Shown: positions 6,363-52,035, counted from the stretch's first letter. The stretch is 64,000 bases of DNA from Deltaproteobacteria bacterium (GCA_016874935.1 VGSS01000001.1:21823-85822); one strand, 5' to 3'. Made by a program: numbers and translations. Notes: a model not told the origin generated them from the letters alone.

Positions 6363-7554
6363 CCATTGCAGCCCTTTTCACCTTCATAAAATGTTTGGTG
6401 ATGACATGAAGAATGATTTCTCCTGCTTTTCCATGCCCAAACAACTCCCTTTCACCTCTAAAGGATTTTCTACTTTCAATCAGTTTCAATCCATTTAAAA
6501 TCTTTCTGGTCCCTGCCCCAATCAATATATTCCATCCGCTTTTGACCGTTTCAACCCACTCAGTTTCATCCCTTAATGTTAAACAAGGAACCTTGAACCA
6601 GTAGGCCTCTTTCTGCACGCCTCCGGAGTCGGTCAGGATGGCCCTGGCATTTTTTTCCAGGGCGATCATATTGAGGTATGAAACGGGTTTAATTAGTTTA
6701 ACCCTATGGTCATCTGGGGAAAGATCGTAGGTTTTCATCATCTTCTTGGTTCTGGGATGAAGAGGAAGGATGATAGGAGCTTTTTTTCCGATCTCATTTA
6801 GGGCTTTCAGAATGGATTTTAGCCTCTTTGGATCATCAGTGTTTTCGGCGCGGTGGAGGGTGGCTAAATAATATTGCGGATTGCGGATTGTGGATTGTGG
6901 ATTGAAAAGATCTAAATCCTTAAGAATCGTTGGCTTCTTTTCAGCTATTTTGGAGTAGTACAGAATCGAATCGAACATTACATCGCCTACGTTTTTGACA
7001 ATCTTTCCTTTCCCATTCCTGACTCCCTCTTTCAATAGATTTTGAACAGCTTGAGTGGTGGGACAGAAGAGAAAGGTGGAGAGATGGTCGGTGAGAAGGC
7101 GGTTGATCTCCTCCGGCATCCTGCGGTTATAACTCCTTAATCCAGCTTCCACATGGGCTATCGGGATATCCAGTTTGGCAGCAGCTAATGCTCCGGCCAG
7201 GGTCGAGTTGGTATCGCCGTAAACAAGAACCGCTCCTGGTTTTTCCTTTTGAAGAACGGCCTCAATTCGTTCAAGCATGATTCCGGTCTGTTTCCCATGG
7301 GACCCCGATCCTACTCCCAGATGGTAATGCGGCTGAGGAAGATCAAGTTCTTCAAAAAAGACCTTATCCATCAGGTAGTCGTAGTGCTGACCGGTGTGGA
7401 CTAAGATTTCTTGAATCTTTTTCTTCTTGTTGGATATTTGAATGGCCCGGCTGACGACAGCGGCTTTAATAAATTGTGGTCTTGCACCAATAACGGTTAC
7501 AATCTTCAAAAAGGGGAAAAAGGGGGACAGGCTACTTTTTTTATTGCTTGCCAT
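6352..7554 (-). CDS. wecB: UDP-N-acetylglucosamine 2-epimerase (non-hydrolysing), WecB/WbpI-like
   Basis: KIVTVIGARPQFIK, HTGQHYDY and GDTNSTLAGALAA motifs. The canonical MKIVTV start would be a TTG at 7507-7509. The ATG at 7552-7554 lies inside a REP palindrome, so the N-terminal residues SSLSPFFPF are REP-encoded. Confidence 0.9.
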   Translation of the reverse strand: MASNKKSSLSPFFPFLKIVTVIGARPQFIKAAVVSRAIQISNKKKKIQEILVHTGQHYDYLMDKVFFEELDLPQPHYHLGVGSGSHGKQTGIMLERIEAVLQKEKPGAVLVYGDTNSTLAGALAAAKLDIPIAHVEAGLRSYNRRMPEEINRLLTDHLSTFLFCPTTQAVQNLLKEGVRNGKGKIVKNVGDVMFDSILYYSKIAEKKPTILKDLDLFNPQSTIRNPQYYLATLHRAENTDDPKRLKSILKALNEIGKKAPIILPLHPRTKKMMKTYDLSPDDHRVKLIKPVSYLNMIALEKNARAILTDSGGVQKEAYWFKVPCLTLRDETEWVETVKSGWNILIGAGTRKILNGLKLIESRKSFRGERELFGHGKAGEIILHVITKHFMKVKRAAMDGQ

Positions 7555-8245
7555 AAATTTTCCTTGGCCTTCCAATTGGCCTAATTGTAGATTCTAATCC
7601 TAAATCTTTGCTTAATTGTAACCTCCAAGACTCATTTCCATATGGAGCCTGTCGAATTACACTTTGTCGAATTCTCTCTAATTCTTTTGCTGTAACCGGC
7701 TCGTTTACATAATCTCCCCAATCTTTAGGTAATTCTAACGGAATGGTATCAATCAAAATACGACTTCTCATTCCCAATGATTCCTGGCTTGACGACCACA
7801 ACCAGTCCTTCGCTGAGTTAACCAACCCCGCTCGCTTTGGATTTCCTTCCACGTAACGCATCACCATCAATAAATGATTGTCCTTTTGAATAAGAAAGCT
7901 CTTATAGCGCCCCTGCCAAACGTGACCTCTTGTTTCATAATGCCGATGATATCGGCGCACATGACTTGTCATTAGCCATTGCATCCATTTGCTTAAATCT
8001 TCAGCGTAATTGGGCATCAAAATTATATGAAAATGGTTTGGCATAAGACAATAAGCAAAAATCTTAACTTCATAACGGGTCTTTGCCTCTTTCACTAATT
8101 CTATAAATGCCTCATAATCTTTGTCTTTATGAAATACTATTTGGCCACCATTTCCTCGATTGATGACATGATATACTGACTCATCAACTAACCCCCTTGA
8201 AATTCTTGGCATTCAAAAAACTCCTTCAAAAAGTAGCCTGTCCCC
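7522..8245 (-). mobile_element. REP-associated tyrosine transposase unit: RAYT gene flanked by inverted REP copies (7522-7540 and 8227-8245)
   Basis: gggggacaggctacttttt at 7522-7540 and its exact reverse complement aaaaagtagcctgtccccc at 8227-8245 bracket the transposase ORF. Confidence 0.75.
7541..8212 (-). CDS. IS200/IS605-family Y1 transposase, RAYT type (REP-associated tyrosine transposase)
   Basis: YHVINRGNGGQ...AYCLMPNHFHIIL motifs (HuH plus catalytic Tyr region) typical of TnpA_IS200/RAYT. Confidence 0.85.
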   Translation of the reverse strand: MPRISRGLVDESVYHVINRGNGGQIVFHKDKDYEAFIELVKEAKTRYEVKIFAYCLMPNHFHIILMPNYAEDLSKWMQWLMTSHVRRYHRHYETRGHVWQGRYKSFLIQKDNHLLMVMRYVEGNPKRAGLVNSAKDWLWSSSQESLGMRSRILIDTIPLELPKDWGDYVNEPVTAKELERIRQSVIRQAPYGNESWRLQLSKDLGLESTIRPIGRPRKIYGKQ

Positions 8246-20655: not shown

Positions 20656-21484
20656 CTTCTCTCTCCTTTTCCGAAATACTGATCTCCCGGAGCTTGGCAT
20701 ATTTGATAAAGACATAAAACATCGTCGAAACGATGATGATCAATCCGGGCAACCCATCCCGGAAACCTGACTTTAAAAGGTATTCCTTGATAAAACGAAA
20801 AGGAGGGTGAAAGAGGAGTTTGAAAAAGCTGAATTTCTCTCCCCTCTGAGCCATATCTTCAGCTGCAATCCGGGAGTATTTATCGATCGTCTGAATCTGA
20901 TCGGAGATATCCCGATAAGTATAATGGAGATACTTGTTCTTTAATACGGAAACTTTCCCACCAACCAAAATCTTGGCATGAAGCCCACCTTCCCACCTCC
21001 CTTTATCCCTTCGATAGAGGCGGATTTCACCGTCCGGATACCATCCCCCATACCGAATCCACTTTCCAAGATAGTAGGTCCGGCGATAGACAAAAAAACC
21101 ATCCACGCCCTCAGCGCTGTCCTTTAACATCCTTCCAATCTCTTCAACCAACTCCAGAGGGACCTCTTCATCGGCGTCAACGAACATGACCCATTCTCTC
21201 GTCGTCAGGTCGGCCGCATACTGATACTGATCGCGATGGCCCTGAAACTCTTTCCGATAGAGTTTGTCCGTATAGCGCTGGCAGACTTCATAAGTTCCGT
21301 CCGTGCTCCCGGAATCAACGACCACCAACTCCTCTGCCCAATCAAGACTCTTAAGACACTGCTCAATGGTGCGACGATTGTTAAAGGTCAGAACGTAGAC
21401 AGAAATGGGAAGTTTACCCCCCGTCCTTCGTCCCTCGTCCCTCGCTCTTCGCCCCCCATTGATCGTCCTTAGTTCATCGTTCAT
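20642..21484 (-). CDS. Family 2 glycosyltransferase (LPS core-type, short form)
   Basis: ISVYVLTFNN...VVVDSGSTDGT and DADE motifs. Confidence 0.75.
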   Translation of the reverse strand: MNDELRTINGGRRARDEGRRTGGKLPISVYVLTFNNRRTIEQCLKSLDWAEELVVVDSGSTDGTYEVCQRYTDKLYRKEFQGHRDQYQYAADLTTREWVMFVDADEEVPLELVEEIGRMLKDSAEGVDGFFVYRRTYYLGKWIRYGGWYPDGEIRLYRRDKGRWEGGLHAKILVGGKVSVLKNKYLHYTYRDISDQIQTIDKYSRIAAEDMAQRGEKFSFFKLLFHPPFRFIKEYLLKSGFRDGLPGLIIIVSTMFYVFIKYAKLREISISEKEREDDSL

Positions 21485-21489
21485 CGTTC

Positions 21490-22557
21490 CTATTGACGCC
21501 CCTCCAATTTCTTACTGACGACCTCTTCCACCTCATCCACGGAAATCAGTTCCATGCACCGGTGGTCAGTAGGGCAGACTCTTTTTAAGCACGGGCTACA
21601 TGGAACGTCTCTTTTCACGACCACATGGCCATCTCCCCAGGGTCCTGTGGCAACTGGATCCGTTGAGCCGAAGATGGCCACAACCGGAGTCCCCACTGCC
21701 GAAGCCATATGCATCGTTCCGGTATCATTTGTCACCAAAAGGCAGCACCGTTCCAGAAGAGCGGCCAGTTGAAGGAGACGGGTCTTTCCCGTAAAATCGA
21801 CTCCTCCGCCCCCTAAATTCTTCAAGATTCGTTCAGCCATGCCCCGCTCTTCCTCTCTCCCGAAAATAAGTGCAGTCGCTTTCCATTTATTGGAAAGCCT
21901 TTCCCCCAGTTCGGCAAATCGATCGGGGGGCCAGCATTTGGCCAACCCGTATGCGGCTCCCGGATTAATGCCAATGATAGGCCTCCCATCCAGAAGACCC
22001 AATTCATCAAGTTTCTTTTTAGCCCACTCTCGCTCCTCCTCGCCAAGAAAGAGTCGGGGGGAAGGAATGCTTCCCAAATGCCCCAAAGGCTCCATCAGCC
22101 TTCGATAATAATGGACACGATGAAGACGAAGAACCTCTCCCTTCCGCTCAATTTCATGCGTGAGAAAGGGGGACCGCCCCTCATCCTGATAACCAATCCG
22201 AATCGGAATCCCGGCCAGATAGATCTGAAATGCTGAACGGAAAGACCTGGGGAAAATAATGGCCAGATCGAACTTCCTCTTCTTCATAGAGCGGCTGACC
22301 TGCACATCTTCCCAGATGGATCCAATCCCACTCTTCTTTTTAAAAGGAATTATTTCATCCACACAGGGAAATGTCTTCCATAGATCAACGAGATGATTTG
22401 GAACAAGGACGGTCAGGCGAGAGTGAGGAAACAATTCTTTTACCCCCTGGACCGAGGGAAAGGTGAGGATTGTGTCCCCCACCCAGTTCACCCCTCGCAC
22501 TAAGATCCGGTTTATTTTGCTAAATTCTGGATCCAGAGTTTTATCTCTTATAAACAT
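21490..22557 (-). CDS. ADP-heptose:LPS heptosyltransferase (GT9; WaaF/WaaC-like)
   Basis: RILVRGVNWVGDTIL N-terminus and C-terminal GTMHMASAVGTPVVAIFG. Confidence 0.8.
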   Translation of the reverse strand: MFIRDKTLDPEFSKINRILVRGVNWVGDTILTFPSVQGVKELFPHSRLTVLVPNHLVDLWKTFPCVDEIIPFKKKSGIGSIWEDVQVSRSMKKRKFDLAIIFPRSFRSAFQIYLAGIPIRIGYQDEGRSPFLTHEIERKGEVLRLHRVHYYRRLMEPLGHLGSIPSPRLFLGEEEREWAKKKLDELGLLDGRPIIGINPGAAYGLAKCWPPDRFAELGERLSNKWKATALIFGREEERGMAERILKNLGGGGVDFTGKTRLLQLAALLERCCLLVTNDTGTMHMASAVGTPVVAIFGSTDPVATGPWGDGHVVVKRDVPCSPCLKRVCPTDHRCMELISVDEVEEVVSKKLEGRQ

Positions 22558-24365: not shown

Positions 24366-24392
24366 TTATAAACTGATTACTGATCACTGATT
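24366..24392. repeat. Heptanucleotide tandem repeat ACTGATY, about 3.5 copies
   Basis: actgatt actgatc actgatt actg, upstream of the thioesterase start. The same unit recurs at 51989-52035. Confidence 0.6.
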
Positions 24393-24448
24393 ACTGTCTC
24401 TTCTTTATAGTTTCCCTATCTCCCCATTACCCCATCTCCCCATACTTC

Positions 24449-26573: not shown

Positions 26574-29500
26574 TGACGGGTTGTTCCCTCCCGAATCTGA
26601 TCGAGCATCCTCCTGGCCAGCCGGCGTTTTTCTTCCCGGCTCGCCATCCCAAGGAGTTTCTGATAGACCTGCCTCGCCTCCGCCCATCTCTTCTCCTCCA
26701 TATAGAGCGCTCCCAATTTCAGCAGAGCTTCCTCCACCAGCTCCGAAAGATGAGGGTAGAGGTAGAGGATCTTTGAAAATTGGAGGATGGCTGCTTCCCT
26801 GTTTCCCGCCTCTGCATAAGCCTCTCCCAACTTGAACTGGGCCTGGCTGGAAATTCTTTCTTCGGGACTTCGCAAGGCGGTCGAGAAAGAGGTAATGGCA
26901 TCCTGAAATCTCTTAAGGGTGAGATGGATAAATCCCGCTCTCAAATAGGCTTCAAACCGGGCCTCATCGTGAGGAAATTTTTCGATAAACTCCTTCAAAA
27001 TCTTTTCCGCTTCGTCAACCTTTCCCAGATTCCGATAGGCCTCCTCCATCCCCAGGGCGCTTCTCTTCGCTGGCGGCATTTGAGGGTGGTTCTTCATCAC
27101 CCATTCGAATCGTTCCAGTGCCTTGGGGTAGGCCTTGAGAAGAAGATGGAGCTCCCCCGCTTCGAGATGGGCCTCGATCAGGAGATGGCTTTTCGGATGG
27201 TTTTTAATGAATCTCTCCATCTCGTCCGAAGCCTCCATCCATCGTTTCTCTGACTTCAAAAGGAGGGCGAGGCGAAATTGCGCCTCCCCTGCCCATTCGC
27301 TCTGAGGGTAGAGTCGAACCGCTTCCTGATAAGTTCTTAAAGCCCTCTCCGTCATCCGGGATTGTTGGTAATATTCTCCCAATTGCATCAGCGCCTGACC
27401 CGTTAGGGGATGTTGGGGATAGCGCTTCAGAAAAGCTTCCGCCCGGGAGATGAAGGGTTCATACCTCTTCTCCTGAAAAAGGGAGAGGAGGATTCCATAA
27501 TCAGCTTCCGGCGCCTCCTTTGATTTGCCATGCTCCCTGATCAGCTGTTGATAGGCCTGAATGGCATTCCCGTACTGTTTGAGATTATAGAAACCATCGC
27601 CTATTTTTAACAGCGAGGAGACGACGAAAGGGCTTTCGGGGTATTGCCGGATGAGCCGCTGGAACTCTTCGATGGCCTTTTGAAAATCCTTTTTCCGGAA
27701 GTGGGACCAACCCGTCCAGTATTGAGCTTCGTCACGATAGGAACTCGAGGGGAAAGCCTCCCTCAACCCTTGAAAATGATTCAATGCCTCATCGAACCGC
27801 TCCTCCCTGTAAGCGATCCATCCCAGAAGATAATAACCCTTCTCCTTCCCCTCTTCTTCAGGCGAGTGAATCAGGCTCATCAAATGGGTTTTTGCCTGAT
27901 CATAATTGTTCTGGTTTAAATAACACTGGCCGATCAAAAGGGAGATGGGAGGGGTGGATCGATGATGGGGAAATTCGGCCGCAATTTTGAGAAAGTAATG
28001 ATTGGCCTCCTTCCACTCCTTTCTCTGAAAATGGTGCCACCCCAGATTGGTCAATCCCATGGGGTAGAGGGCAGGATCTCCTTTTAATTGATCCACATAT
28101 CTGACGCCATTTCGGTAATCCTCTTTCAGCAGGTGGCTCTCCGCCAGCCAGTACAAGACCTCGTTCTTCTCCGGGTGGTCGGGAAATTCCCTGAGAAGCC
28201 TTTCCCAGTATCCGATGGCTTCACCGTAATTTTTCAATAAGAAATGACCATATCCCAGCCTCGAATAGACCCGTTCTTCAAAATGCGCTCTCCTCTTCGA
28301 CCACAACACCTGCCGATAGGCGCCGATGGCGCCGGCATAATCCTTCTGATTGAAAAGGGATTCCCCTAACATAAAGTAGGCCCATTCCTGAAGGTCATTC
28401 TCAGGAAACGTCCTCAGGAACTGTTGGAAGGTGACAACGGCGTGGAGATATTCTTTTTTCTTAAAGTGGTATCGCCCGATATCGAAGAGGCTCTGCTCGG
28501 TCCAGGGCGAGGGAAGAAACTGGGAGAGGAATCTCTGATAGAATTGAATCGCCTTTTCTATCTCATCACTCCCCAGGTAACTCCTCAAAATTCCCCAGAA
28601 GATGGGATCAGACAGTTTTGTGCGGGGGAAGTTCAAAAGGATCTCTTCGAACGTCTTCCTTCCCCCGGTATAATCTCCAAGAGAGACCTGGCTCCAGGCC
28701 AGGGCATATCGGCCGCTCTCCTCTAACGGATGTCTGGGGTAGCGCCTTAAAAAGTTTCTGAAAAGTGTAACGGCCTCTTCATACTTCTGGAGCCTGAAGG
28801 TGTTGACGCCCATCAGATACTCTGCCTCCGGTCGCCATATCCCTTCAGGATGTTTCTTGAGATGAGTGTCAATCTCCTTGATCGACTCTGAATATCGCCC
28901 CAGGTGGTAAAGGCAGTATCCCGACCAGAAGAGAGAGGACTGGGCAATGGAGAGAACGGGATTCTTTTCGTAAGCCAGACGGAAGAATCGACTTCCCTCC
29001 TCATAGACTCCCTTCATCAGTTGAATCCATCCGCAGGAATAGAGGGCATAAGGGGTGAATTCACTGTCGGGATATTCTTCGACCACTTTCTTAAATAAGG
29101 AGAAAGCTTCTTCTGCCTTTTCCTGATGAAACTTTGCCTCTCCCATCCAGTAGATCGCAGAGCCTTTCAATAAGCTCTCCGGGTGTTCATCGACCAACCG
29201 CCGAAAAAGTTGTAAGGCATCCTCATAATTCCCCTGGAGATAGTGATGTCTTCCCCTTTCGTAAAAGGCCCTATCTCCGCTGGTCATCCCTCTCGTGAGC
29301 CTGCTCGTGTAAGCACAGCCGGGTTGGGTGGTGGATGGGCTCATCTTCTTCATCGGCCCGATCTGGTCTTCTCTCAGATCGAACGAGCCTGCGGAGGGCT
29401 CCTCTTTAATCCCCTGGGCCGAAATGATGGGAAGAGAAACTTCTCTCTCTTCCGTCCATTTCGTCTCCTCTTTGCCTAAAAAAATAATTTCAGGCGCTCG

Positions 29501-29602
29501 AATCCGACCCCGGCTCTGATCCTGACCTTTGAGGATAGAGAAAGAGAAGGTTAGGGAGAGGAGAAGAAGGAGGCTGAGAATCTTCGCTAACTTATTGAAC
29601 AT
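26570..29602 (-). CDS. Large secreted tetratricopeptide-repeat protein (1010 aa)
   Basis: N-terminal signal peptide, then many TPR-like A/Y/W-rich 34-residue repeats (…AYxxxGxxYxxxxxYxxA…). Confidence 0.8.
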   Translation of the reverse strand: MFNKLAKILSLLLLLSLTFSFSILKGQDQSRGRIRAPEIIFLGKEETKWTEEREVSLPIISAQGIKEEPSAGSFDLREDQIGPMKKMSPSTTQPGCAYTSRLTRGMTSGDRAFYERGRHHYLQGNYEDALQLFRRLVDEHPESLLKGSAIYWMGEAKFHQEKAEEAFSLFKKVVEEYPDSEFTPYALYSCGWIQLMKGVYEEGSRFFRLAYEKNPVLSIAQSSLFWSGYCLYHLGRYSESIKEIDTHLKKHPEGIWRPEAEYLMGVNTFRLQKYEEAVTLFRNFLRRYPRHPLEESGRYALAWSQVSLGDYTGGRKTFEEILLNFPRTKLSDPIFWGILRSYLGSDEIEKAIQFYQRFLSQFLPSPWTEQSLFDIGRYHFKKKEYLHAVVTFQQFLRTFPENDLQEWAYFMLGESLFNQKDYAGAIGAYRQVLWSKRRAHFEERVYSRLGYGHFLLKNYGEAIGYWERLLREFPDHPEKNEVLYWLAESHLLKEDYRNGVRYVDQLKGDPALYPMGLTNLGWHHFQRKEWKEANHYFLKIAAEFPHHRSTPPISLLIGQCYLNQNNYDQAKTHLMSLIHSPEEEGKEKGYYLLGWIAYREERFDEALNHFQGLREAFPSSSYRDEAQYWTGWSHFRKKDFQKAIEEFQRLIRQYPESPFVVSSLLKIGDGFYNLKQYGNAIQAYQQLIREHGKSKEAPEADYGILLSLFQEKRYEPFISRAEAFLKRYPQHPLTGQALMQLGEYYQQSRMTERALRTYQEAVRLYPQSEWAGEAQFRLALLLKSEKRWMEASDEMERFIKNHPKSHLLIEAHLEAGELHLLLKAYPKALERFEWVMKNHPQMPPAKRSALGMEEAYRNLGKVDEAEKILKEFIEKFPHDEARFEAYLRAGFIHLTLKRFQDAITSFSTALRSPEERISSQAQFKLGEAYAEAGNREAAILQFSKILYLYPHLSELVEEALLKLGALYMEEKRWAEARQVYQKLLGMASREEKRRLARRMLDQIREGTTRQ

Positions 29603-29814
29603 GGCATCACTCTATTTTTTAACCTATCAGAAAGATTGAAGGATTGTCAACCCTTCGGTTCCTGTCGGCCAAAGATCGGAAGGCTTACTCAGGGTTGACC
29701 CTGAGCGCAATTTCATCTCTCTCACCTTCGTCTTTCCTATGTTGAGCAGGATTTCGATTTTGTCGAAGGGGCAAGAATTGACAAGCATTTTATGAATATG
29801 ATAACCTTTTTTTA

Positions 29815-30555
29815 ATGAAGACAAAAGCCTATTTTATATTCGTATGGATCATACTTTTCGCTTTTTCTGCCGGATGTGGGGGGGACAGGAGGAGTTCAAC
29901 ATCGGACTCCAGGAGGGATTTCAAAACCATGCGTGAAAAGATGGTTGAAACACAGATTAAAAGCCGTGGGGTGAAGGATGAAAGAGTGCTCTCTGCCATG
30001 CTCAAGGTAGAACGTCATTGTTTCGTCCCGAAAGAATATGAATCCCAAGCCTATGCGGATCAACCCCTGCCCATCGGAGAGGGGCAGACTATCTCCCAGC
30101 CCTACATCGTTGCCTTGATGACGGAGTTGTTGGGTCTTAAGGGAGAAGAAAAGGTTCTGGAGGTCGGAACAGGATCAGGGTACCAGGCTGCCATTTTAGC
30201 GGAATTGGCCAAGGAGGTTTATACGATCGAGATTGTTGAGACCCTTGCTTCCTCTGCAAAGAATCTGCTCTTCGAACAGGGGTATCGGAACATCCAGGTG
30301 AAGGCAGGGGATGGCTATTTGGGGTGGCCTGAGGCTGCTCCTTTTGATGCGATCATCGTCACCTGTGCGCCTGACCACATCCCGAAACCTCTCCTGGATC
30401 AATTAAAGGAAGGCGGACGAATGGTCGTCCCTGTGGGAGCTCATTCTCAGGAATTAAAAAGGATCGTCAAAAGATCCGGAAAGATAGAGACGACGGATAT
30501 CACCCCCGTCCTCTTCGTCCCCATGACCGGCGAAGGCGTGAAGCAGAAGAAGTGA
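29815..30555 (+). CDS. pcm: Protein-L-isoaspartate O-methyltransferase with an N-terminal signal/lipoprotein-like extension
   Basis: TISQPYIVALMTELL...VLEVGTGSGYQAAILAEL motifs. The canonical core begins at MREKMVETQ (29929). The upstream 38 aa contain a hydrophobic helix plus FSAGC. Confidence 0.85.
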   Translation: MKTKAYFIFVWIILFAFSAGCGGDRRSSTSDSRRDFKTMREKMVETQIKSRGVKDERVLSAMLKVERHCFVPKEYESQAYADQPLPIGEGQTISQPYIVALMTELLGLKGEEKVLEVGTGSGYQAAILAELAKEVYTIEIVETLASSAKNLLFEQGYRNIQVKAGDGYLGWPEAAPFDAIIVTCAPDHIPKPLLDQLKEGGRMVVPVGAHSQELKRIVKRSGKIETTDITPVLFVPMTGEGVKQKK

Positions 30556-31200
30556 ACTACCACCAGCTACAAGATGGTGGATTCTCTACCGGCTGAAGTC
30601 GGCTAAAGAAAAACAGACCAGCACAGAAATTCTCGCGAGGGAAAACCTGAAAAACCTGCACACAGTGTGCATACTAAGGTCTTCGCCTAAAGGTGAGGGT
30701 TTTCCTCCCCGAGTGAGACAATAACTTTTATTTATAAATAAGGGATTGTATTTAGTTCTTCCTGAAACATGCAAGATTGCACTCTGTCCCGAATTTGAAG
30801 ACTTCAAACAGATACCTTCAGTCTCATCAAAGTGAAGATATTGGCAAGATATGCTCAGGTTTTTTAGTTTGATGCTACACCGGGGTTAAATCATTGCTTA
30901 CCCAACCATTACTGAAGAGTAAGTTTATCACCTTGGGGCAAGGCAATCCTGAATCACCAATCCCTTAAGTTTCCCAAAGAGAATCCACTTTTCCTTTTGA
31001 AATCAATCTTTAAACCCTATCTTGTTTGCCTCAATTTTACACAAATCTGAGTGACTTTTTTACCAAAAACCACAATTATTGTACGTTTTTCTAAAAAAGA
31101 AGGCTGGATGAATCAGACAGGGCAGGGACGATCTCAAGCTACAGCCACCGCAGACGATTCAGGATCTAAGAAATATAGGAGATGACTGGATATCATCTTT

Positions 31201-31236
31201 ACCCCATTAGAAAGTTTTCAACTTTCTAATGGGGTT
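31201..31236. promoter_or_regulatory. Perfect 15-bp stem hairpin (accccattagaaagtt tcaa aactttctaatggggt) in an ORF-free AT-rich region
   Basis: Inverted repeat read directly from the sequence; the RNA or regulatory role is unknown. Confidence 0.3.
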
Positions 31237-31651
31237 TGCGGAAACCCAGGGGAAAATGTCGGGGGGCTATGCACAACATAAACATATTGCTCCCTCCATA
31301 TCTCTGCTTAGAAGCGGGAATTGAAGAGGTATGAGGTATGTTAGGGGTAAAACCTGCTGTTTTTGGTCAGATTTGGACCAGGACCATTGATGTTAATATA
31401 AAATTACTCTTTAATTTGTAATTTAAATATTAAGTAGTTACGCATATGCGCTATGCTCTCTGCGCCATGCTTTTATTGTGGCACAGGAAATGCTAAAAAG
31501 ATTGCCATAATTTTCTTTTTTTGATATATTGGGTCAAATTCCAGTGGGGGGGGAGATCTCATGGATATTCTCAACAGAAGTCTATTCTTAAAAAGGAATG
31601 GTTTTTTGTTTTTGCGCTATGCACTTTGCGCTATGCGGGAGGTTGGTAGTC

Positions 31652-31834
31652 ATGCCAGCGATTGCACCGATCGAAGATTTAAAAGCTGCTCAAAAAGAAC
31701 TCTTAGAAACGTCGGATATTAATGATTTGAAAAAAGTTTTTAAGAAATATCGGCGTATTGGATGGAAAAATATCTGCAAGCTTTGGCTCGAAGAAGCTAC
31801 ACCAGAAAAATTGAAAGGCGAGGTAGGTGGATGA
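31652..31834 (+). CDS. Small hypothetical protein (60 aa), translationally coupled to the downstream ORF6N gene
   Basis: GGGAGG ribosome-binding site 9 nt upstream of the ATG. Its stop overlaps the ORF6N start (ATGA). No recognisable family. Confidence 0.4.
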   Translation: MPAIAPIEDLKAAQKELLETSDINDLKKVFKKYRRIGWKNICKLWLEEATPEKLKGEVGG

Positions 31835-32562
31835 ACGATAAAACATCCCAAGACGGATCTCTAATTCCGGCTGAACGTATCGAACGATCAATACTACTGA
31901 TTCGTCGGCAGAAGGTGATGCTTGATCGTGACCTGGCACAATTATACGGTGTCGAAACACGTGCCTTAAACCAAGCAGTCCGCAGGAATATAGAGCGGTT
32001 TCCCGAGGATTTTATGTTTCGTTTAACCCGCGAAGAGATATTTAGGATATCACAATTTGTGACATCCTCGGCCCACCTTGGGATCGAGACACTGAAATTT
32101 TCAAAGAATGTAAGGCTATTTACAGAGCATGGAGTTGCAATGCTATCCAGTGTTTTGAATAGTCCCAGAGCTGTTCAAGTCAATATTCAGATCATGCGGA
32201 CATTTGCAAAACTACGAGAGATTATATCTCTGAATAAAGATTTAGCCAGGAGATTGGATGAACTCGAAAAGAAATATGATGCCCAGTTTAAAATTGTTTT
32301 CGATGCCATCCGTCAGCTAATGGCATCCCCGGAGCCTGGATCAGCACCACCCAAGAGGCGAATTGGATTCCTTGTTGAGGAACCTAAAGTTCCTTATATC
32401 ACGAGAACGAAAAAGAAATCACATGACTGGCTTAGGGGTCAGGTCTCAACATTCAACATTCATCATGATGCCAACATTTGCACAATTCCATTTTGTCAAA
32501 TGTTGAGATCTGACCCTTTTTCTTTTCTTTTTCTTTTACAGGCGTGCCATATTGGGACGTAG
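31833..32562 (+). CDS. ORF6N-domain (KilA-N-like DNA-binding) protein
   Basis: LIRRQKVMLDRDLAQLYGVETRALNQAVRRNIERFPEDFMFRLTREE matches the ORF6N domain consensus. Confidence 0.7.
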
Positions 32563-32645
32563 TCGATTTGATAGAGTTCCCGGGCGAACCAGAGCCACTA
32601 TGGATCAGAAGCGGCGAAGGCCCCTTAGATTGGATTCCGAAGCCA

Positions 32646-33020
32646 TTAGTCAATTTTACCAATAAATTCCTTGGTGGCTCTCATATAGGCTTTAACAGCT
32701 TCTACGTCATAAATAAGCCCTCTATAATATCCAGCAATATGCAAAGCGTCATAGAGCTTCTCAAACTCCCTTAAAACCTTGCCATCGCGGACTACTAAAT
32801 ACTTCTGCAATGCCTTTCTATATGCATCTACTGACTTAGGAAGCTCTTTCTTCATTAACCCTTTTTTGATCAAATATTCATTAATAGCTTCTAAAATCGC
32901 AAGGTAAGCCGTTGCAAACGCTTCCCGCACAGGCTTAATATCTGTGTAGGTATTATCTTCTACGGGAACAGATTTTAATATCTCTTTTGCATTATTTAAA
33001 TATCGCAAGGCTTCTCTCAT
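32646..33020 (-). CDS. DUF5618-like small helical protein
   Basis: About 124 aa with the pattern EALRYLNNAKEILK...AYLAILEAINEYL...VDAYRKAL...LHIAGYYRG. Family assignment is from memory and should be confirmed by a profile search. Confidence 0.45.
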   Translation of the reverse strand: MREALRYLNNAKEILKSVPVEDNTYTDIKPVREAFATAYLAILEAINEYLIKKGLMKKELPKSVDAYRKALQKYLVVRDGKVLREFEKLYDALHIAGYYRGLIYDVEAVKAYMRATKEFIGKID

Positions 33021-33138
33021 TTGTAATTCCCCTCTCTATATCTATGGGAGATTTGCTTGTTCCTCCCATTCCCAATTTAAATCTAATCAAAAAAGGCATG
33101 GCTGTCAAATTTAAAACCGTTTTGGACATGAACCTCAA

Positions 33139-34488
33139 CTACTTTCCTTTTTCCATTTTCTTTTTTCTCCAGGCTTCGAGCCTCTCCTTGATCTCCTTCT
33201 CGAAACCTTGGTCGGTTGGGTGGTAGTAAATCTTTCCTTTCAGATTCTCAGGAAGGTATTCCTCTTCGATGAAATGATCCGGATAATCATGGGGATATTT
33301 ATAGTCCTTTCCATAACCCAGGGCCTCCATCAGAGAGGTGGGAGCATTCCGGATATGGAGCGGAACAGGCATGTTCTCAAGCTCCCGGACATCCTTCTGC
33401 ACTCCCTGAAATGCCGCATAAAGGGAATTTGATTTAGGAGCGGTTGCTAGATAGACAGCCGCCTGGGCAAGGGCCAGATTCCCCTCAGGTTGGCCGATGA
33501 AGTGAAAGGCTTGCATTGCAGAAACCGCCACTTGTAAAGCCTGGGGGTCTGCATTTCCTACATCTTCTGAAGCGAACCGGATCATCCGCCTCGCAATATA
33601 GAGGGGATCCTCTCCAGCCTCTAACATCCTTCCCAGCCAGTAGAGGGCCGCATCCGGATCACTCCCTCTCAGGCTCTTGTGGAAAGCGGAGATCAGATTA
33701 TAATGCTCCTCCCCAGACTTGTCATAAAGAAAGGTCTTTCTCTGGAGGACTTCCTCAAGATTTCTCGTGGTGATTTTACGGATCCCGTTTGGATCGGGCG
33801 GAGTGGTGATCACAATCATTTCCAGGGTGTTCAGACCGACTCGTGCATCGCCGTTGACCATTCGTGAGATCCTTTTAATTACCTCATCCTCAACCTCGGT
33901 TAGATACTGACCTAATCCCCTCTCCTGATCGCTCAATGCCCGGTTTAAAATGACCTCGATCTCTTCTTCGGTCAAAGCGCGGAGGGTAAAAACCTTAGCC
34001 CTGGAAAGCAGCGGTGAAATCACTTCAAAGGATGGGTTTTCCGTAGTTGCACCGATGAGGATGATTGTTCCTTTCTCGACATGGGGCAGGAAAGCGTCCT
34101 GTTGGGCCTTGTTGAACCGGTGGATTTCATCGACAAAGAGGATCGTCCTTCTCTTCCGGTACTTCCACTCCTCCCCCGCTTCGTGGACGACTTCCCTAAT
34201 CTCTTTCACACCGGAGAGCACGGCGCTGAAGGCGGTGAAATGACCGCTTGTGACGGACGCTATGAGCATTGCCAGGGTCGTCTTCCCTGACCCAGGCGGA
34301 CCCCAGAGAATCATGGAAGGAATGTGATCCGATTCAATGGCCTGACGAAGGACTTTGCCGGGCCCCAGAAGATGATCCTGGCCCACGAACTCTTCCAGCT
34401 TTTTCGGCCTCAACCGATCAGCCAGGGGAGCCTCTCTCTTGGAAAATTCCTTTCCTTTTCTCTCAAAAAGATCGGTCTGTTTTTTCAT
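33139..34488 (-). CDS. rarA: Replication-associated recombination protein A (RarA/MgsA AAA+ ATPase)
   Basis: Walker A GPPGSGKTT, Walker B VDEIHRFNKAQQDA, sensor motifs, and a C-terminal MgsA domain. Confidence 0.9.
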   Translation of the reverse strand: MKKQTDLFERKGKEFSKREAPLADRLRPKKLEEFVGQDHLLGPGKVLRQAIESDHIPSMILWGPPGSGKTTLAMLIASVTSGHFTAFSAVLSGVKEIREVVHEAGEEWKYRKRRTILFVDEIHRFNKAQQDAFLPHVEKGTIILIGATTENPSFEVISPLLSRAKVFTLRALTEEEIEVILNRALSDQERGLGQYLTEVEDEVIKRISRMVNGDARVGLNTLEMIVITTPPDPNGIRKITTRNLEEVLQRKTFLYDKSGEEHYNLISAFHKSLRGSDPDAALYWLGRMLEAGEDPLYIARRMIRFASEDVGNADPQALQVAVSAMQAFHFIGQPEGNLALAQAAVYLATAPKSNSLYAAFQGVQKDVRELENMPVPLHIRNAPTSLMEALGYGKDYKYPHDYPDHFIEEEYLPENLKGKIYYHPTDQGFEKEIKERLEAWRKKKMEKGK

Positions 34489-34511
34489 AGGATTTCGCTA
34501 TGCGCTCTGCG

Positions 34512-35324
34512 CTATGCGTTATTTGTCTCGCGTATCGCTTGAAGCATCTGCTCGTGGATCAGCCCATTGGATGCGACCAGAAGTCCTCCAGAATAGATAT
34601 CGAAAGGCCCCCCCTTTGGATCGGTCACCTTCCCCCCGGCCTCAATGACGATGAGGTTCGCTGCGGCCACATCCCAGGGTTGTAGCCTTAACTCCCAGAA
34701 GCCATCAAATCGCCCTGCTCCCACATAGCAGAGGTCGATGGCCGTAGAACCAGGTCTGCGAATGGCAAAGGTTTGTCTGATGAATTGATGAAAATAGCGA
34801 AGATAGTATTCTGGACGCTCCTGAACATCGTAAGGGAAACCGGTAGCAAGAAAACTCCTCTTCAATTGACTGGTTTGAGAGACAGAGATTCTCTTTTCAT
34901 TCAGAAACGCTCCTTCTCCTTTTTGGGCGACGAAGAGCTCTTCGAAGAGGGGGATGTATACCACTCCCAGGATCACTTCTCCGTCTTTCTCCAGGCCAAT
35001 GGAGACGGAAAAAAAAGGAAAACCCCGGTAATAGTTTGTCGTCCCGTCGAGTGGATCGATGATCCATCTCCAGGGAGACCCCTTCTCCTTAAAAGGACTC
35101 TCCTCTGTCAGGATGTCGTGGTCAGGGAAGGCATGATGAATCGCCTTCTGGATGGCCTGATCACAGAGCCGGTCCACTTCGGTTACCGGATTAAATTCTC
35201 CCTTAAAGGTGATGGACTGGGGCTGACCAAAGCGAGCCCTCTGGATCTTACCCGCCTCTTTGGCCGCTGTGATAGCCACCTCGAAATAGTGTTTATTCTC
35301 TTTCATCATTCTCCCCTTGATCAC
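34512..35324 (-). CDS. suhB: Inositol monophosphatase family protein (SuhB-like)
   Basis: DPLDGTTNY and WDVAAANLIV.EAGG motifs. Confidence 0.85.
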   Translation of the reverse strand: MIKGRMMKENKHYFEVAITAAKEAGKIQRARFGQPQSITFKGEFNPVTEVDRLCDQAIQKAIHHAFPDHDILTEESPFKEKGSPWRWIIDPLDGTTNYYRGFPFFSVSIGLEKDGEVILGVVYIPLFEELFVAQKGEGAFLNEKRISVSQTSQLKRSFLATGFPYDVQERPEYYLRYFHQFIRQTFAIRRPGSTAIDLCYVGAGRFDGFWELRLQPWDVAAANLIVIEAGGKVTDPKGGPFDIYSGGLLVASNGLIHEQMLQAIRETNNA

Positions 35325-35394
35325 CCTGATTTGACAACCTCATGGTTCAGACTATATGATACAAAGAAAATCAAGTCAATCATAAGCCCAATCC

Positions 35395-35548
35395 TCCCCT
35401 GCGGTGGAAACTGTGTCGTAATAGGGGAAACTAAAAAAATGTCATGCCGAACTTGTTTCGGCATCTAATCATTCCAAGAACTTACGAGACCCTGAAACAA
35501 GTTCAGGGTGACAAATTAGTAATTACGACACAGTCTCGTGGGGAGAGG
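35395..35548. repeat. MITE-like palindromic element, family R2, copy a
   Basis: Terminal inverted repeats ggaaactgtgtcgtaatagggg / agtaattacgacacagtctcgtgggg. Internal hairpins tgtcatgccgaacttgtttcggcatc and gaccctgaaacaagttcagggtgaca. Confidence 0.7.
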
Positions 35549-35569
35549 GAGGACGATGAGGAACGCCAG

Positions 35570-35971
35570 ATGAAATTCGTATCCGATGGAGGCTGTTTTG
35601 TGTGCGGCGAAAAGAATCCGCACGGATTAAAAATTAAGTTTCAGGTCGACCGGGATAAACAGAACATCCACACCACCTTCACTGTTGAGCCAACCTATCA
35701 GGGCTGGGATGGAATCGTTCACGGAGGAATCATCTGCACCCTCTTAGATGAGGCTATGGCCAATCTGGTTTATGAATTGGGCATGAATGCAATTGCGGCG
35801 TCCCTGGAGGTCAGATTCAAAAAACCGGCTCCAACCCTTCAACCTCTTATGGTCTATGGAGAAATCACGGAGGTGCATAAGAAATTGGTTAAGGCAAAGG
35901 CAAGCGTCACGAGGGAGGATGGAACGGTATTGGCCACGGGAATCTCCACCTTTGTCAGGCAGAGTCCGTAA
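35570..35971 (+). CDS. PaaI/4HBT-family hotdog thioesterase
   Basis: GIVHGGIICTLLDEAMA motif. True start at MKFVSDGG. The ORF-track N-terminal extension is read through repeat R2-a. Confidence 0.75.
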   Translation: MKFVSDGGCFVCGEKNPHGLKIKFQVDRDKQNIHTTFTVEPTYQGWDGIVHGGIICTLLDEAMANLVYELGMNAIAASLEVRFKKPAPTLQPLMVYGEITEVHKKLVKAKASVTREDGTVLATGISTFVRQSP

Positions 35972-35976
35972 AAACT

Positions 35977-36819
35977 TTATCCTGGTTGAAGAACCTTCAA
36001 AAAATTCAATCCTAAAATTTTTTTGCGATCCTCAATGGAAAGACCTGATTCCTCCAGTTCCTGAAAATATCTCGGAGGCCGAACCAGTGGAAAGTCCGAT
36101 CCGAAAATAATCTTCTCCGCGCCCACGATCTCGCTCACAATTCGATAGATCCTCTTCGAGTAAAGGAAGGGAGAGGCGGCTGTATCGTAATAGACATTCG
36201 CCATTGCCTTCTTCACCTCAGGCATTAACTCATAGAAGGGGAGCCCTCCTCCCCAGTGAGCCAGTAGAATCGGAAGAGATGGAAAGGTGAGGGCGAACTG
36301 GTAGAAAACCTCCAGAGGAGTTCCTCCTTTGCCGGGATAGGAATGACCGAGATGCTCATTGGCATGGAGAAGGATGGGAATCTTCTGATTCTCCATCTCT
36401 TGAAAAATCGGCCTCATCGATTCAATATCCTGAGCGGTCATCTCTCGATCGTAGAAAGCGATCTCTCCCACTCCCTTTGCTCCATTCTTTATCCTTCGAT
36501 CCAGTTCCATGGCAGACCATTCCGGATCTGAAAAGAGAAGAAGAATGAAAACGATCAACCGATGGGGATAGCGCGAGGCAGAATCAATCAGGTATTGATT
36601 ATGAAGAGCGCAGAGCTCTTTTTCTTCCCAGGGAAAACCGCAGATCACGGACTGCTCGATCCCGGCCTCATCCATTGAGGCAATCAACTCCTCTGCTCCG
36701 ACGAGCCTGGCTTTGGGATTTTTATAAACGGAAGAAAACCCTCTGTCCCTTAAACAGAAGGCCTCCCTATTCTTTTTCACCTCGTCAGGAAAGATATGGG
36801 TATGACAGTCGACGATCAT
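35977..36819 (-). CDS. Amidohydrolase-family (TIM-barrel metal-dependent hydrolase) protein
   Basis: N-terminal IVDCHTHIF metal-binding motif. Confidence 0.7.
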   Translation of the reverse strand: MIVDCHTHIFPDEVKKNREAFCLRDRGFSSVYKNPKARLVGAEELIASMDEAGIEQSVICGFPWEEKELCALHNQYLIDSASRYPHRLIVFILLLFSDPEWSAMELDRRIKNGAKGVGEIAFYDREMTAQDIESMRPIFQEMENQKIPILLHANEHLGHSYPGKGGTPLEVFYQFALTFPSLPILLAHWGGGLPFYELMPEVKKAMANVYYDTAASPFLYSKRIYRIVSEIVGAEKIIFGSDFPLVRPPRYFQELEESGLSIEDRKKILGLNFLKVLQPG

Positions 36820-51988: not shown

Positions 51989-52035
51989 TGACAAATTACT
52001 GATCACTGATTACTGACTACTGATCACTGATTATT
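51989..52035. repeat. Heptanucleotide tandem repeat ACTGAYY, 5 copies
   Basis: actgatc actgatt actgact actgatc actgatt; lies between the TAXI-2 stop and the DUF1850 start. Confidence 0.65.

Follow-up and report, generated by a model that had tools for sequence, protein, structure and literature searches.

Three repeat sites near a small-ORF/ORF6N cassette and rarA are probably short GCGCTAT heptanucleotide arrays

The window, by which we refer to the whole stretch of 64,000 nucleotides analysed here from a Deltaproteobacteria bacterium, contains a cassette consisting of a small ORF and a gene for an ORF6N-domain protein, and the genes suhB and rarA on the opposite strand. Three sites in this region, here called S1, S2 and S3, carry the repeats that are the subject of this study. 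The features are located as follows.

31448 to 31475, + strand: S1, heptamer array GCGCTAT GCTCTCT GCGCCAT GCTTTTA
31502 to 31530, + strand: sigma-70-like promoter module, TTGCCA-17-TATATT, with a TG extension
31573 to 31610, + strand: terminator-like hairpin and U-run just upstream of S2, a conserved cassette-boundary module
31614 to 31641, + strand: S2, heptamer array GCGCTAT GCACTTT GCGCTAT GCGGGAG
31652 to 31834, + strand: small ORF of 60 amino acids (MPAIAPIEDL...), overlapping the ORF6N start (ATGA)
31831 to 32562, + strand: ORF6N-domain protein of 243 amino acids, anti-repressor-like
34486 to 34514, - strand: rarA start codon (34486-34488) and suhB stop codon (34512-34514), which bracket S3
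34495 to 34522, + strand: S3, heptamer array TCGCTAT GCGCTCT GCGCTAT GCGTTAT

An earlier note on this DNA had described paired direct repeats at the three sites, and its coordinates and quoted sequences were correct. The pairs are real: the pattern CGCTATGC-N5-GCGCYATGC has exact matches at 31449-31470, 31615-31636 and 34496-34517, all on the + strand, as compared with 0.03 matches expected in the window, and none of 100 shuffles contained at least three matches. For GCGCTATGC with at most one mismatch, 15 matches were identified in the window versus 4.2 expected. The motif pairs at S1 to S3 are non-random. The interpretation of the pairs as a dedicated 9-mer unit did not hold, since the 14-nt spacing corresponds to two 7-nt units. 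When read in 7-nt phase, each site is a tandem array of 3 to 4 units with the consensus G-C-N-C-Y-N-T (GCGCTAT). The middle unit has diverged in S1 and in S2, and because these sites contain only 3 units, the heptamer reading there draws on family context. All three sites lie between genes or border on a stop codon, and no homology among them was found beyond approximately 24 nt. A dispersed repeat of the REP or MITE type was rejected, since S1 to S3 share only this short stretch, with no inverted partner in the window region. No credible match to Rfam was obtained for positions 29500 to 36000 at E<=1, and at the gathering threshold the search of 14 array loci returned one tRNA and nothing else.

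S1 is preceded by a 10-bp palindrome, CGCATATGCG (31441-31450). Its left flank and array were 88.9% identical over 36 nt to the small-ORF leader array of locus L226, and S1 probably represents a remnant cassette leader. The last unit of S2 merges with the Shine-Dalgarno sequence GGGAGG of the small ORF, the ATG of which is at 31652, in agreement with the overlap with the ribosome-binding site already noticed, and the terminator-like hairpin with its U-run is located directly upstream. Leader arrays homologous to S2 were found in L226, L237, L246 and L256. S3, which had been assigned to the promoter region of rarA, is instead an array with the suhB stop codon inside it, 23 nt from the rarA start. 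The stop codon, CTA at 34512-34514 and thus TAG on the - strand, is supplied by the array, which fills the 23-nt spacer between the suhB stop and the rarA start (34488).

Tandem periodicity was scored as at least 17 of 21 matches at a given lag, with shuffles as the control. Within the window, strong periodicity of this kind was confined to lag 7, with five segments of four unit types; at this threshold, lags 4 to 6 and 8 to 12 gave no segments, nor did the shuffles. S3 was one of the five segments; the other four, identified by the same lag-7 test, are listed here.

6870 to 6908, no strand assigned: heptamer array, CGGATTG, 5 units
21417 to 21490, no strand assigned: heptamer array, TCCYTCG and CGTTCAT units
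24372 to 24399, no strand assigned: heptamer array, ACTGATY, 4 units (TNACTGA type)
51994 to 52033, no strand assigned: heptamer array, ACTGATY, 5 to 6 units (TNACTGA type)

The same preference was observed in 514 kb of rarA loci, where 20 arrays were counted at lag 7, as compared with 8 at lag 6 and 5 at each of lags 8 and 9; lags 5 and 10 to 13 had none, and the 25 arrays at lag 4 were scored at a looser threshold than the other lags. TAACTGA itself was present in locus L169.

Arrays of 3 to 15 GCGCTAT units were identified in more than 100 species genomes among the matches listed, the hosts being MAGs of uncultured Deltaproteobacteria/Desulfobacterota-like bacteria, Nitrospirota, Planctomycetota and Omnitrophota. 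About half of the matches listed were labelled Deltaproteobacteria or Desulfobacterota, proportions that may be biased. Among these matches, three or more in-phase heptamer units were present in 111 of the 125 arrays, usually 4 to 5 and up to 15, and the spacers in the genome-scan arrays were GCTAT, GCCAT, TCTAT, CCTAT or TCTCT. According to a crude longest-ORF map, approximately 65% of the family arrays listed were intergenic. All four gene-orientation contexts were about equally frequent among the matches listed, with arrays at 3' ends as often as at 5' ends, and the downstream genes were diverse and unrelated; 20 of the 35 listed arrays in the TAG-bearing orientation abutted or overlapped the upstream stop codon. 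Both direct and inverted array arrangements occur. The repeats in the window thus belong to a larger generic repeat family with arrays in many genomes, which is what the earlier note had named as evidence against its own reading. A composite element was observed in Syntrophobacteria-like MAGs and is absent at this locus. No GCGCTAT-repeat strings were found in the literature searched, and the unit appears not to have been described previously.

The suhB-rarA spacer contained an array of 7- to 8-nt units in most of 24 relatives (78% to 87% RarA identity), with orthologous arrays in L126, L129, L130 and L133. The spacer units formed a series of one-step drift, from CATAGCG to CATAGGG, GATAGGG and GTTAGGG and then to the octamer GATAGGGA, and GGGGATA/GATAGGG units were present in the rarA relatives. 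Copy number also differed, with 4 units in L129 and 2 in L133. Such drift in sequence and copy number at an orthologous spacer is unlike a fixed operator. The 80 rarA loci examined, several of which retain the array, contained neither ORF6N nor the small ORF. Between rarA and pcm lies a hot spot for insertions, where the spacer ranges from 9 bp to 4.2 kb. We infer that the suhB-rarA spacer carried S3 ancestrally, and that S1 and S2 arrived with the inserted small-ORF/ORF6N cassette, the 5' leader of which is a hot spot for the GCGCTAT repeat.

The small ORF had 758 homologs at E<=0.001, and the best 120 of the 758 were 76% to 100% identical. The protein is highly conserved and basic around RRIGWKN, and searches of Pfam and PHROG assigned it to no family. 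Its AF2 model consists entirely of helices, four in number, lacks an N-terminal strand and had no fold match in the PDB below E = 1. The ORF6N protein has a C-terminal extension of about 45 amino acids relative to homologs of 193 to 199 amino acids. A stretch similar to the promoter module was seen by eye in the ORF6N cassette loci L206 to L209; by BLAST, positions 31501-31547 aligned to L208 only, with 81% identity. The terminator-like hairpin motif was present in 10 of the loci L206 to L245. The small ORF also precedes restriction-modification and helicase genes, and the gene arrays are cassette-like and co-oriented, with an order that varies between contigs.

The suggested link between the motif and the cassette was borne out in part of the family, in that approximately 5 to 6 of about 14 distinct small-ORF leader variants carried a GCGCTAT-type array ending 10 to 25 nt before the ATG; the remaining leaders contained a different unit (CTTACGC) or no array. 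L226 contained two leader arrays, of 4 GCGCTAT and 5 CTTACGC units, while L227 and L230 had 2 GCGCTAT units, and L227 had 3 CTTACGC units, in flanks identical to those of L226. Contigs that were otherwise nearly identical thus differed in leader-array length by 14 nt, or two units. Since the five contigs with the exact locus examined here were 100% identical, this copy-number instability was seen at other loci and not in the window's own arrays.

In one proposal, the ORF6N/KilA-N protein encoded next to the repeats would bind them as operators or iterons, autoregulate its operon and also control rarA. In favor of this, ORF6N is a predicted DNA-binding, anti-repressor-like domain, S2 adjoins the ribosome-binding site of the ORF6N operon, and P0025-type ORF6N genes have the sequence GCKCTNT GCGCTAT GCG about 64 nt upstream. 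However, an ORF6N homolog was identified by tblastn, phmmer and jackhmmer in only 1 of 120 array-seeded loci among the matches listed, and this sole copy was a frameshifted pseudogene about 400 nt away, behind a terminator-like hairpin. Conversely, the GCGCTAT array was absent at the ORF6N homologs of L206, L208, L209 and 16 viral loci, and the L207 ORF6N locus retained only a one-unit remnant. The travelling partner of the array is the small ORF rather than ORF6N, S3-type arrays are kept in relatives whose loci are without ORF6N, and the unit drifts at the orthologous suhB-rarA site. With changing copy number, no orientation rule and unrelated neighboring genes as well, the operator or iteron interpretation was not supported by the comparison, and we consider ORF6N as the reader of these sites extremely improbable.

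The arrays might alternatively be cis sites for another heptad-reading trans factor that binds cooperatively and controls the cassette genes, such as the conserved 60-amino-acid protein or a widespread omega/RHH-like or RNA-binding protein. Operators of the omega (inc18)/RHH heptad type consist of tandem 7-bp units, direct and inverted, upstream of genes, and the GCGCTAT arrays likewise occur in both arrangements. The unit is conserved across phyla and placed just before the Shine-Dalgarno sequence in the 5 to 6 leaders mentioned above, and the conservation and basic region of the small protein would suit such a role. In contrast, the model of this protein is not of the RHH type and resembled no DNA-binding fold by structure or family, the small ORF was found in 0 of 120 array-seeded loci among the matches listed, the other small-ORF leaders use CTTACGC or have no array, and the arrays follow no positional or orientation rule, with unstable unit number and sequence. 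We consider such a factor unlikely. An operator specifically of the omega/RHH type was rejected, as there is no adjacent RHH gene and the all-helical small protein matched neither Pfam nor PHROG; in a further difference from omega operators, the GCGCTAT unit changes in sequence between orthologous sites.

At the RNA level, an unstructured sense array 5' of the Shine-Dalgarno sequence could provide a ribosome standby site or translation-modulating platform, a hypothesis also proposed for the TAACTGA repeats (PMC4679880). S2 and many other arrays end 7 to 25 nt before the Shine-Dalgarno-ATG region in the sense orientation, and the predicted fold of the leader RNA leaves S2 unpaired, immediately downstream of a stable hairpin. 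However, S3, like about half of all arrays, runs antisense to its neighboring genes or lies 3' of them, rarA has its array in antisense and no Shine-Dalgarno sequence, there is neither covariation nor structure in support, and the leader fold has a z-score of -0.63. We consider this explanation quite unlikely.

The arrays could also be short homology tracts at cassette boundaries that mediate the shuffling, insertion or deletion of defence/TA-type cassettes, as a functional analogue of attC or of minisatellite-driven exchange. Array flanks indeed reassort, the left flank of L246 being that of L236 and the right flank of L237:2538 also that of L236. Furthermore, the arrays are located between a terminator and the Shine-Dalgarno sequence of the next cassette, cassette order differs among contigs, and a 40-nt hairpin is situated between units in L246 relative to L256. 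On the other hand, no recombinase was linked to the arrays, whose 21 to 35 bp do not exceed the length of homology usually required for recombination; most arrays in the 120 genomes among the matches listed are flanked by ordinary housekeeping genes, and S3 is located in a conserved syntenic spacer. Integron attC sites, which the co-oriented, cassette-like gene arrays bring to mind, are imperfect inverted repeats with RYYYAAC ... GTTRRRY cores and a linked integron integrase, unlike the GCGCTAT arrays, which are direct repeats. We regard a role as recombination junctions as very unlikely.

A broader proposal is that the arrays act in cis as the functional element of a mobile leader module, comprising the small ORF and heading defence/TA-type cassettes in Desulfobacterota-like bacteria, with heptads that would be read by a trans factor, possibly the 60-amino-acid protein, and that would set expression via unit number or serve cassette exchange. 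The cassette genes in this proposal are ORF6N, type IIG restriction-modification, PLD-SNF2 helicase and DUF1016 genes. If true, this would make the arrays a heptamer-based equivalent of the attC sites of integrons, and would give bacterial heptamer repeats their first assigned function; we consider it improbable.

S1 to S3 are most probably short, partly degenerate GCGCTAT arrays of the class of intergenic heptameric simple-sequence repeats. The arrays display the features of heptanucleotide repeats, with at least 3 tandem units, an excess of period 7, a preference for non-coding sequence and copy-number variation in relatives. Slipped-strand mispairing or unequal recombination between units would give rise to the arrays and keep them internally homogeneous, and the identical 9-mers 14 nt apart would represent the slippage register. 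The arrays would grow until they meet selected sequence, and in the TAG-carrying orientation an array could run into a gene and replace its stop codon, as may have happened at suhB. The effect would be generic, in that the unit number would set the length of the unstructured leader between the terminator hairpin and the ribosome-binding site. Since a change in unit number alters leader length, an array could act as an expression rheostat rather than as a sequence-specific operator. Our best guess is that the GCGCTAT arrays are slippage-driven repeats that change leader length. The recurrence of one unit across phyla, and in 5 to 6 of the about 14 leader variants, goes beyond what simple neutral slippage would predict; selection, transfer or binding by a shared factor may play a part.

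Heptamer repeats between genes have been known since the STRR elements of 1990. The GCGCTAT unit is widespread in uncultured anaerobic lineages and recurs in leaders of a conserved small ORF, the first gene of defence-like cassettes, and the copy-number changes between natural contigs offer a modest but concrete place to study expression tuning or cassette exchange. For annotation, short tandem heptamers should not be named operators or iterons from a local view alone.

The GCGCTAT repeats are of the same kind as STRR, TAACTGA and GGGAATC, a known kind with a new unit. Precedents are the STRR, TAACTGA, GGGAATC/GGGGAYT and Geobacter families, and heptamers have been described as the most abundant class of long SSRs, with slippage as the proposed cause (PMC4679880, PMC4692102, PMC2700814, PMC2651432). 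Like Xanthomonas GGGAATC, Nostoc GGGGAYT and cyanobacterial STRR, which are without assigned function, the GCGCTAT repeats form short, strongly intergenic tandem arrays of 7-nt units, flanked by the same gene pairs in related species with variable length and sequence, and inverted array pairs occur (PMC4692102). Comparable units, GGGGATA/GATAGGG, were even seen in the rarA relatives. In contrast to the Xanthomonas, Nostoc and cyanobacterial repeats, the GCGCTAT unit is not rich in G and is unable to form a G-quadruplex, the arrays are short (3 to 5 units) and degenerate, and the hosts are uncultured MAGs. Several multicopy families of 3 to 5 tandem 7- to 8-nt repeats, often paired on opposite strands and considered putative global regulator sites, are likewise present in a Deltaproteobacteria-type genome, that of Geobacter metallireducens, although GCGCTAT is not among the families given in the part of that account available (GGACCGG, MTYCTGA, GTTGCTYN and TCTCCGTS; Aklujkar 2009). 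In Haemophilus influenzae, the 7-nt promoter repeats of hmw1A/hmw2A vary in copy number among strains and modulate expression, as phase or rheostat variation (PMC2651432). Those arrays comprise 13 to 38 units in a host-adapted pathogen, whereas for the arrays here an effect on expression is a prediction by analogy; in both cases a heptanucleotide SSR is located upstream of a gene, and here copy number changes by two units between near-identical contigs. The TAACTGA repeats of marine Beggiatoaceae, cyanobacteria and Bacteroidetes (MacGregor 2015) differ in unit and in their forward-orientation bias, which is not seen here, and S2 is followed by a Shine-Dalgarno sequence. In both cases, one heptamer forms intergenic arrays (of 2 to 6 copies for TAACTGA) in distant phyla, many of them just upstream of start codons and with no functional theme among the downstream genes, and the window itself contains TNACTGA-type arrays, at 24372-24399 and 51994-52033.

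The window contained 15 matches to GCGCTATGC with at most 1 mismatch, compared with 4.2 expected. The paired motif described in the earlier note, here written CGCTATGC-N5-GCGCYATGC, matched exactly at 31449-31470, 31615-31636 and 34496-34517, all on the + strand, with 0.03 matches expected in the window and no shuffle reaching 3, and the region reads as that note described. The three sites, referred to as S1, S2 and S3, are located among the following features:

29815-30555, + strand, pcm
30556-31651, non-coding stretch of 1.08 kb
31448-31475, + strand, S1
31614-31641, + strand, S2
31652-31834, + strand, small ORF of 60 aa
31831-32562, + strand, ORF6N
32646-33020, - strand, DUF5618
33139-34488, - strand, rarA
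34495-34522, + strand, S3
34512-35324, - strand, suhB-like

S2 adjoins the Shine-Dalgarno sequence of the small ORF. S3 fills the 23-nt spacer between suhB and rarA and also contains the suhB stop codon, and it is therefore not located in the promoter region of rarA, where it had previously been placed. When the sites were aligned with 50-nt flanks, about 24 bases were conserved and no extended element was common to the three, which ruled out an extended repeat or MITE at these sites. An Rfam scan of the S1-S3 region gave nothing relevant, and a tRNA scan of the window gave no hits. All 5 of the contigs carrying the window's own locus were 100% identical.

The pair pattern was also searched in one genome per species, which gave at least 120 loci; the source genome was not among the matches listed. 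The N5 spacer in the listed matches was nearly always GCTAT, GCCAT, TCTAT, CCTAT, TCTCT or similar, and the true unit is therefore a heptamer. Three or more units in 7-nt phase were present in 111 of the 125 arrays among these matches, usually 4 to 5 and up to 15. Tallies over the same matches gave the consensus G-C-N-C-Y-N-T, with mostly G at position 3 and mostly A at position 6, the commonest unit being GCGCTAT. About 14 listed matches had non-heptamer spacers and look like chance matches; most came from high-GC genomes and lay within coding sequence. The sites in heptamer register are:

S1: GCGCTAT GCTCTCT GCGCCAT GCTTTTA
S2: GCGCTAT GCACTTT GCGCTAT GCGGGAG
S3: TCGCTAT GCGCTCT GCGCTAT GCGTTAT

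According to the record titles, about half of the first 80 listed loci were from MAGs labelled Deltaproteobacteria, Desulfobacterota or Syntrophobacterales, and others were from Nitrospirota, Planctomycetota/PVC, Omnitrophota, Gemmatimonadota, Bacteroidota relatives and one cyanobacterium. About 65% of the listed arrays were intergenic on a crude longest-ORF map, and all four orientations of the flanking genes were about equally frequent. As at suhB, the stop codon of the upstream gene was abutted or overlapped by 20 of the 35 listed arrays in the TAG orientation. A three-frame stop insulator was rejected as a general rule, since neither strand of two other heptamer units of the window contains a stop codon and since the family shows no orientation bias. 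The genes starting just 3' of sense-oriented listed arrays had varied functions, judged by eye from their N-termini (likely HypC, RuvA and TruA; an ABC ATPase, oxidoreductases and membrane proteins). Many of the listed arrays had an inverted array 10 to 40 nt away; the motif search of the window found no inverted partner near S1-S3.

In Syntrophobacteria-like MAGs (L008, L021, L025, L030, L047, L066, L113 and L118; alignment A2), the array is part of a composite element that occurs in multiple copies and includes a hairpin and a T-run. The order is an inverted heptamer array (GCGCARAGC or GTAAACGGT units), a spacer, CGCTATG CGCCATG CGCTATG CTCTATG CG, the hairpin ACCTGGCCCnAAGGACCAGG and TTTT. 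It may represent a MITE or a gene for a small RNA, and had no Rfam match. Rfam scans of 14 array loci gave nothing relevant.

Period 7 was not confined to the GCGCTAT family. In a sliding self-match test of the window at lags 4 to 12, with at least 17 of 21 matches required per lag, lag 7 was the sole lag with segments, five in total; lags 4-6 and 8-12 gave none, nor did the shuffles. The segments, and one further array, were:

6870-6908, heptamer array CGGATTG, lag-7 test
21417-21452, continuing to 21490, heptamer array TCCYTCG/CGTTCAT, lag-7 test
24372-24399, heptamer array ACTGATY (TNACTGA), lag-7 test
51994-52033, heptamer array ACTGATY (TNACTGA), lag-7 test
34495-34522, S3, the fifth lag-7 segment
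32445-32465, heptamer array CTCAACA/TTCAACA

Most of the arrays other than S3 lie between co-oriented minus-strand genes. The array at 6870-6908 falls within a predicted ORF (6352-7575) that could represent two separate genes. The rarA loci of relatives, 514 kb in total, contained 20 arrays at lag 7, of many unit types including TAACTGA, compared with 8 at lag 6, 5 each at lags 8 and 9, and none at lags 5 and 10-13; lag 4 gave 25 arrays, but at a looser threshold of 10/12 matches. The ACTGATY arrays of the window are one base off the TAACTGA repeats of Beggiatoaceae, cyanobacteria and Bacteroidetes, and GATAACT/TAACTGA itself was carried by one relative (L169, 2270-2338). Heptamer arrays are a general feature of the source genome and its relatives.

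We fetched 80 rarA loci from metagenomes and compared the suhB-rarA spacer in the 24 loci with 78% to 87% RarA identity. Most of these contained a tandem array with a unit of 7 to 8 nt in the spacer. On the rarA strand the units can be ordered as a drift series of single steps, apart from one unrelated unit:

CATAGCG: window, L126
CATAGGG: L129, L133
GATAGGG: L131, L136
GTTAGGG: L132, L135, L139
octamer GATAGGGA: L137, L140, L143, L145, L147
CAATGAC (unrelated): L142

Copy number also differed, with 4 units in L129 and 2 in L133. Usually, suhB terminates at the first TAG that the array places in frame. In the closest relative, L126, the orthologous array (395-425) was decayed and had no TAGs, and the suhB frame apparently continues across it to a TGA, with an ATGA overlap with the rarA start. 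Array persistence with drift in unit sequence and number has likewise been described for the GGGAATC repeats of Xanthomonas (PMC4692102), and it is not the behaviour of a fixed operator.

Leader modules of the window around S1 and S2 are found again in the cassette loci (contigs with the small ORF or ORF6N). These are the terminator-like hairpin (31573-31610), the 5' end of the small ORF and, by eye and with a BLAST match to L208 only, a promoter-like stretch resembling TTGCCA-17-TATATT (31502-31530). It was also noted that this sigma-70-like module and the U-run hairpin recur in the ORF6N cassette contigs (L206-L245), and that in the window they are just about 45 nt apart, as if a cassette between them had been deleted. 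The leader RNA is predicted to fold into the U-run hairpin, with S2 remaining single-stranded; the overall z-score was -0.63.

Visual grouping of the 19 distinct 90-nt sequences 5' of small-ORF homologues gave roughly 14 independent leader variants. In 5 or 6 of these (window, L226:2307, L237:2538, L246, L256 and, as a one-unit remnant, L207), a GCGCTAT-type array terminated in GCG 10 to 25 nt before the ATG; CTTACGC heptamers took its place in one variant, and the remaining variants had no array. Compared with L226, the GCGCTAT arrays of L227 and L230 were shorter by exactly 14 nt, or two units, between identical flanks, and the CTTACGC array also differed between L226 and L227, again with identical flanks. 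Left and right flanks were reassorted around the array among variants. A 40-nt hairpin (CCTGTCCTCCGTAGTCCCGCAAGACCGGACGTAGGAGGAT) was located between two heptamer units in L246 (~1120-1200) and absent in L256 (~1150-1200); in L207, L236 and L237 it stands 5' of the position of the array. The left flank and array of S1 matched the L226 leader with 88.9% identity over 36 nt, and from this similarity S1 is probably a remnant leader. A sigma-54-like -24/-12 element (TGGCACAGGAAATGCT, 31479-31494) is located 9 nt 3' of S1, and TGGCAC-N5-WTGCW had a single match in the window (TGGCAC-N5-ATGCT; 0.04 expected). A sigma-54 UAS reading of S1 was set aside, since enhancer sites usually lie farther away than 9 nt and no EBP gene was seen nearby.

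The earlier note had placed two of the sites upstream of the small-ORF/ORF6N operon and had read the 9-mer pairs as a likely operator or iteron, with the adjacent ORF6N protein as candidate binder. An association with the cassette leader holds up, but the constant partner of the array is the small ORF, not ORF6N. None of the 120 listed array-seeded loci contained the small ORF, yet the array occurs in 5 or 6 of the roughly 14 leader variants, and it is therefore enriched in the cassette leader and not specific to it. ORF6N was found at 1 of the 120 listed loci (L072), as a frameshifted copy separated from the array by about 400 nt and a terminator-like hairpin, and no GCGCTAT array was found at the ORF6N loci L206, L208 and L209 or at 16 viral ORF6N loci (IMG/VR; 38% to 56% identical). 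Together with the drift in the suhB-rarA spacer, this leaves the operator interpretation not supported. The small protein itself had no family in Pfam or PHROG. Its AF2 model (pLDDT 77) has four short helices and no strand, so that it is not a ribbon-helix-helix protein; a PDB fold search with the model gave no match below E = 1, and a sequence-profile search of PDB gave only matches judged spurious. These results gave no support for a known DNA-binding fold.

In relatives (L127-L148), rarA and pcm are convergent neighbours with a spacer of 9 bp to 4.2 kb, which makes the junction an insertion hot spot. The window's insert (30556-32640 region) comprises DUF5618, the cassette and the 1.08 kb of non-coding DNA, which had no Rfam match; neither the small ORF nor ORF6N was present in any of the 80 rarA loci of relatives. 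More than 8000 ORF6N homologues were identified, the best being 80% to 88% identical and 193 to 199 aa long, compared with which the window protein has a C-terminal extension of about 45 aa. ORF6N also matched phage anti-repressor PHROGs. An inverted repeat with 18-bp arms (GGGTCAGGTCTCAACATT ... AATGTTGAGATCTGACCC, 32430-32520) lies inside the 3' end of the frame, and the longer frame points to loss of a stop codon or insertion of a hairpin element. The small ORF had 758 homologues at E<=0.001, the best 120 of which were 76% to 100% identical, one being an exact copy encoded by a MAG that NCBI labels Deltaproteobacteria bacterium (locus tag FJ130_00265). The protein (MPAIAPIEDL...RRIGWKN...; window 31652-31834, L206-L274) represents a very conserved, unannotated family. 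Both genes occur in co-oriented cassette-like arrays with HicAB, MNT/HEPN, DUF1016, GIY-YIG and BrnTA genes. The small ORF heads diverse defence/TA-type genes, preceding type IIG restriction-modification genes and PLD-SNF2 helicases as well as ORF6N and DUF1016, usually with an overlapping 'ttgaaaggtgagg..ATG' junction to the next gene.

S1, S2 and S3 are heptanucleotide simple-sequence repeats. They fall into 7-nt register, tandem periodicity is specific to period 7, the unit is widely distributed, the array of an orthologous spacer drifts, and copy number in related arrays changes by two units. A string search of the literature for the GCGCTAT repeat found no paper. The arrays may arise by slippage or unequal exchange and would expand up to selected boundaries. 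Neutral slippage does not fully explain why one unit recurs across phyla and in the small-ORF leader; a factor that reads the heptads might also be involved, or the arrays might take part in cassette exchange. The sites are of the same kind as STRR elements, the TAACTGA repeats (PMC4679880), the GGGAATC/GGGGAYT repeats (PMC4692102) and the Geobacter metallireducens repeat families (PMC2700814). None of these four has an assigned function, and polymerase slippage has been proposed as their source. By analogy with the 7-nt repeats of H. influenzae hmw (PMC2651432), the array could possibly have a length-dependent effect on expression.
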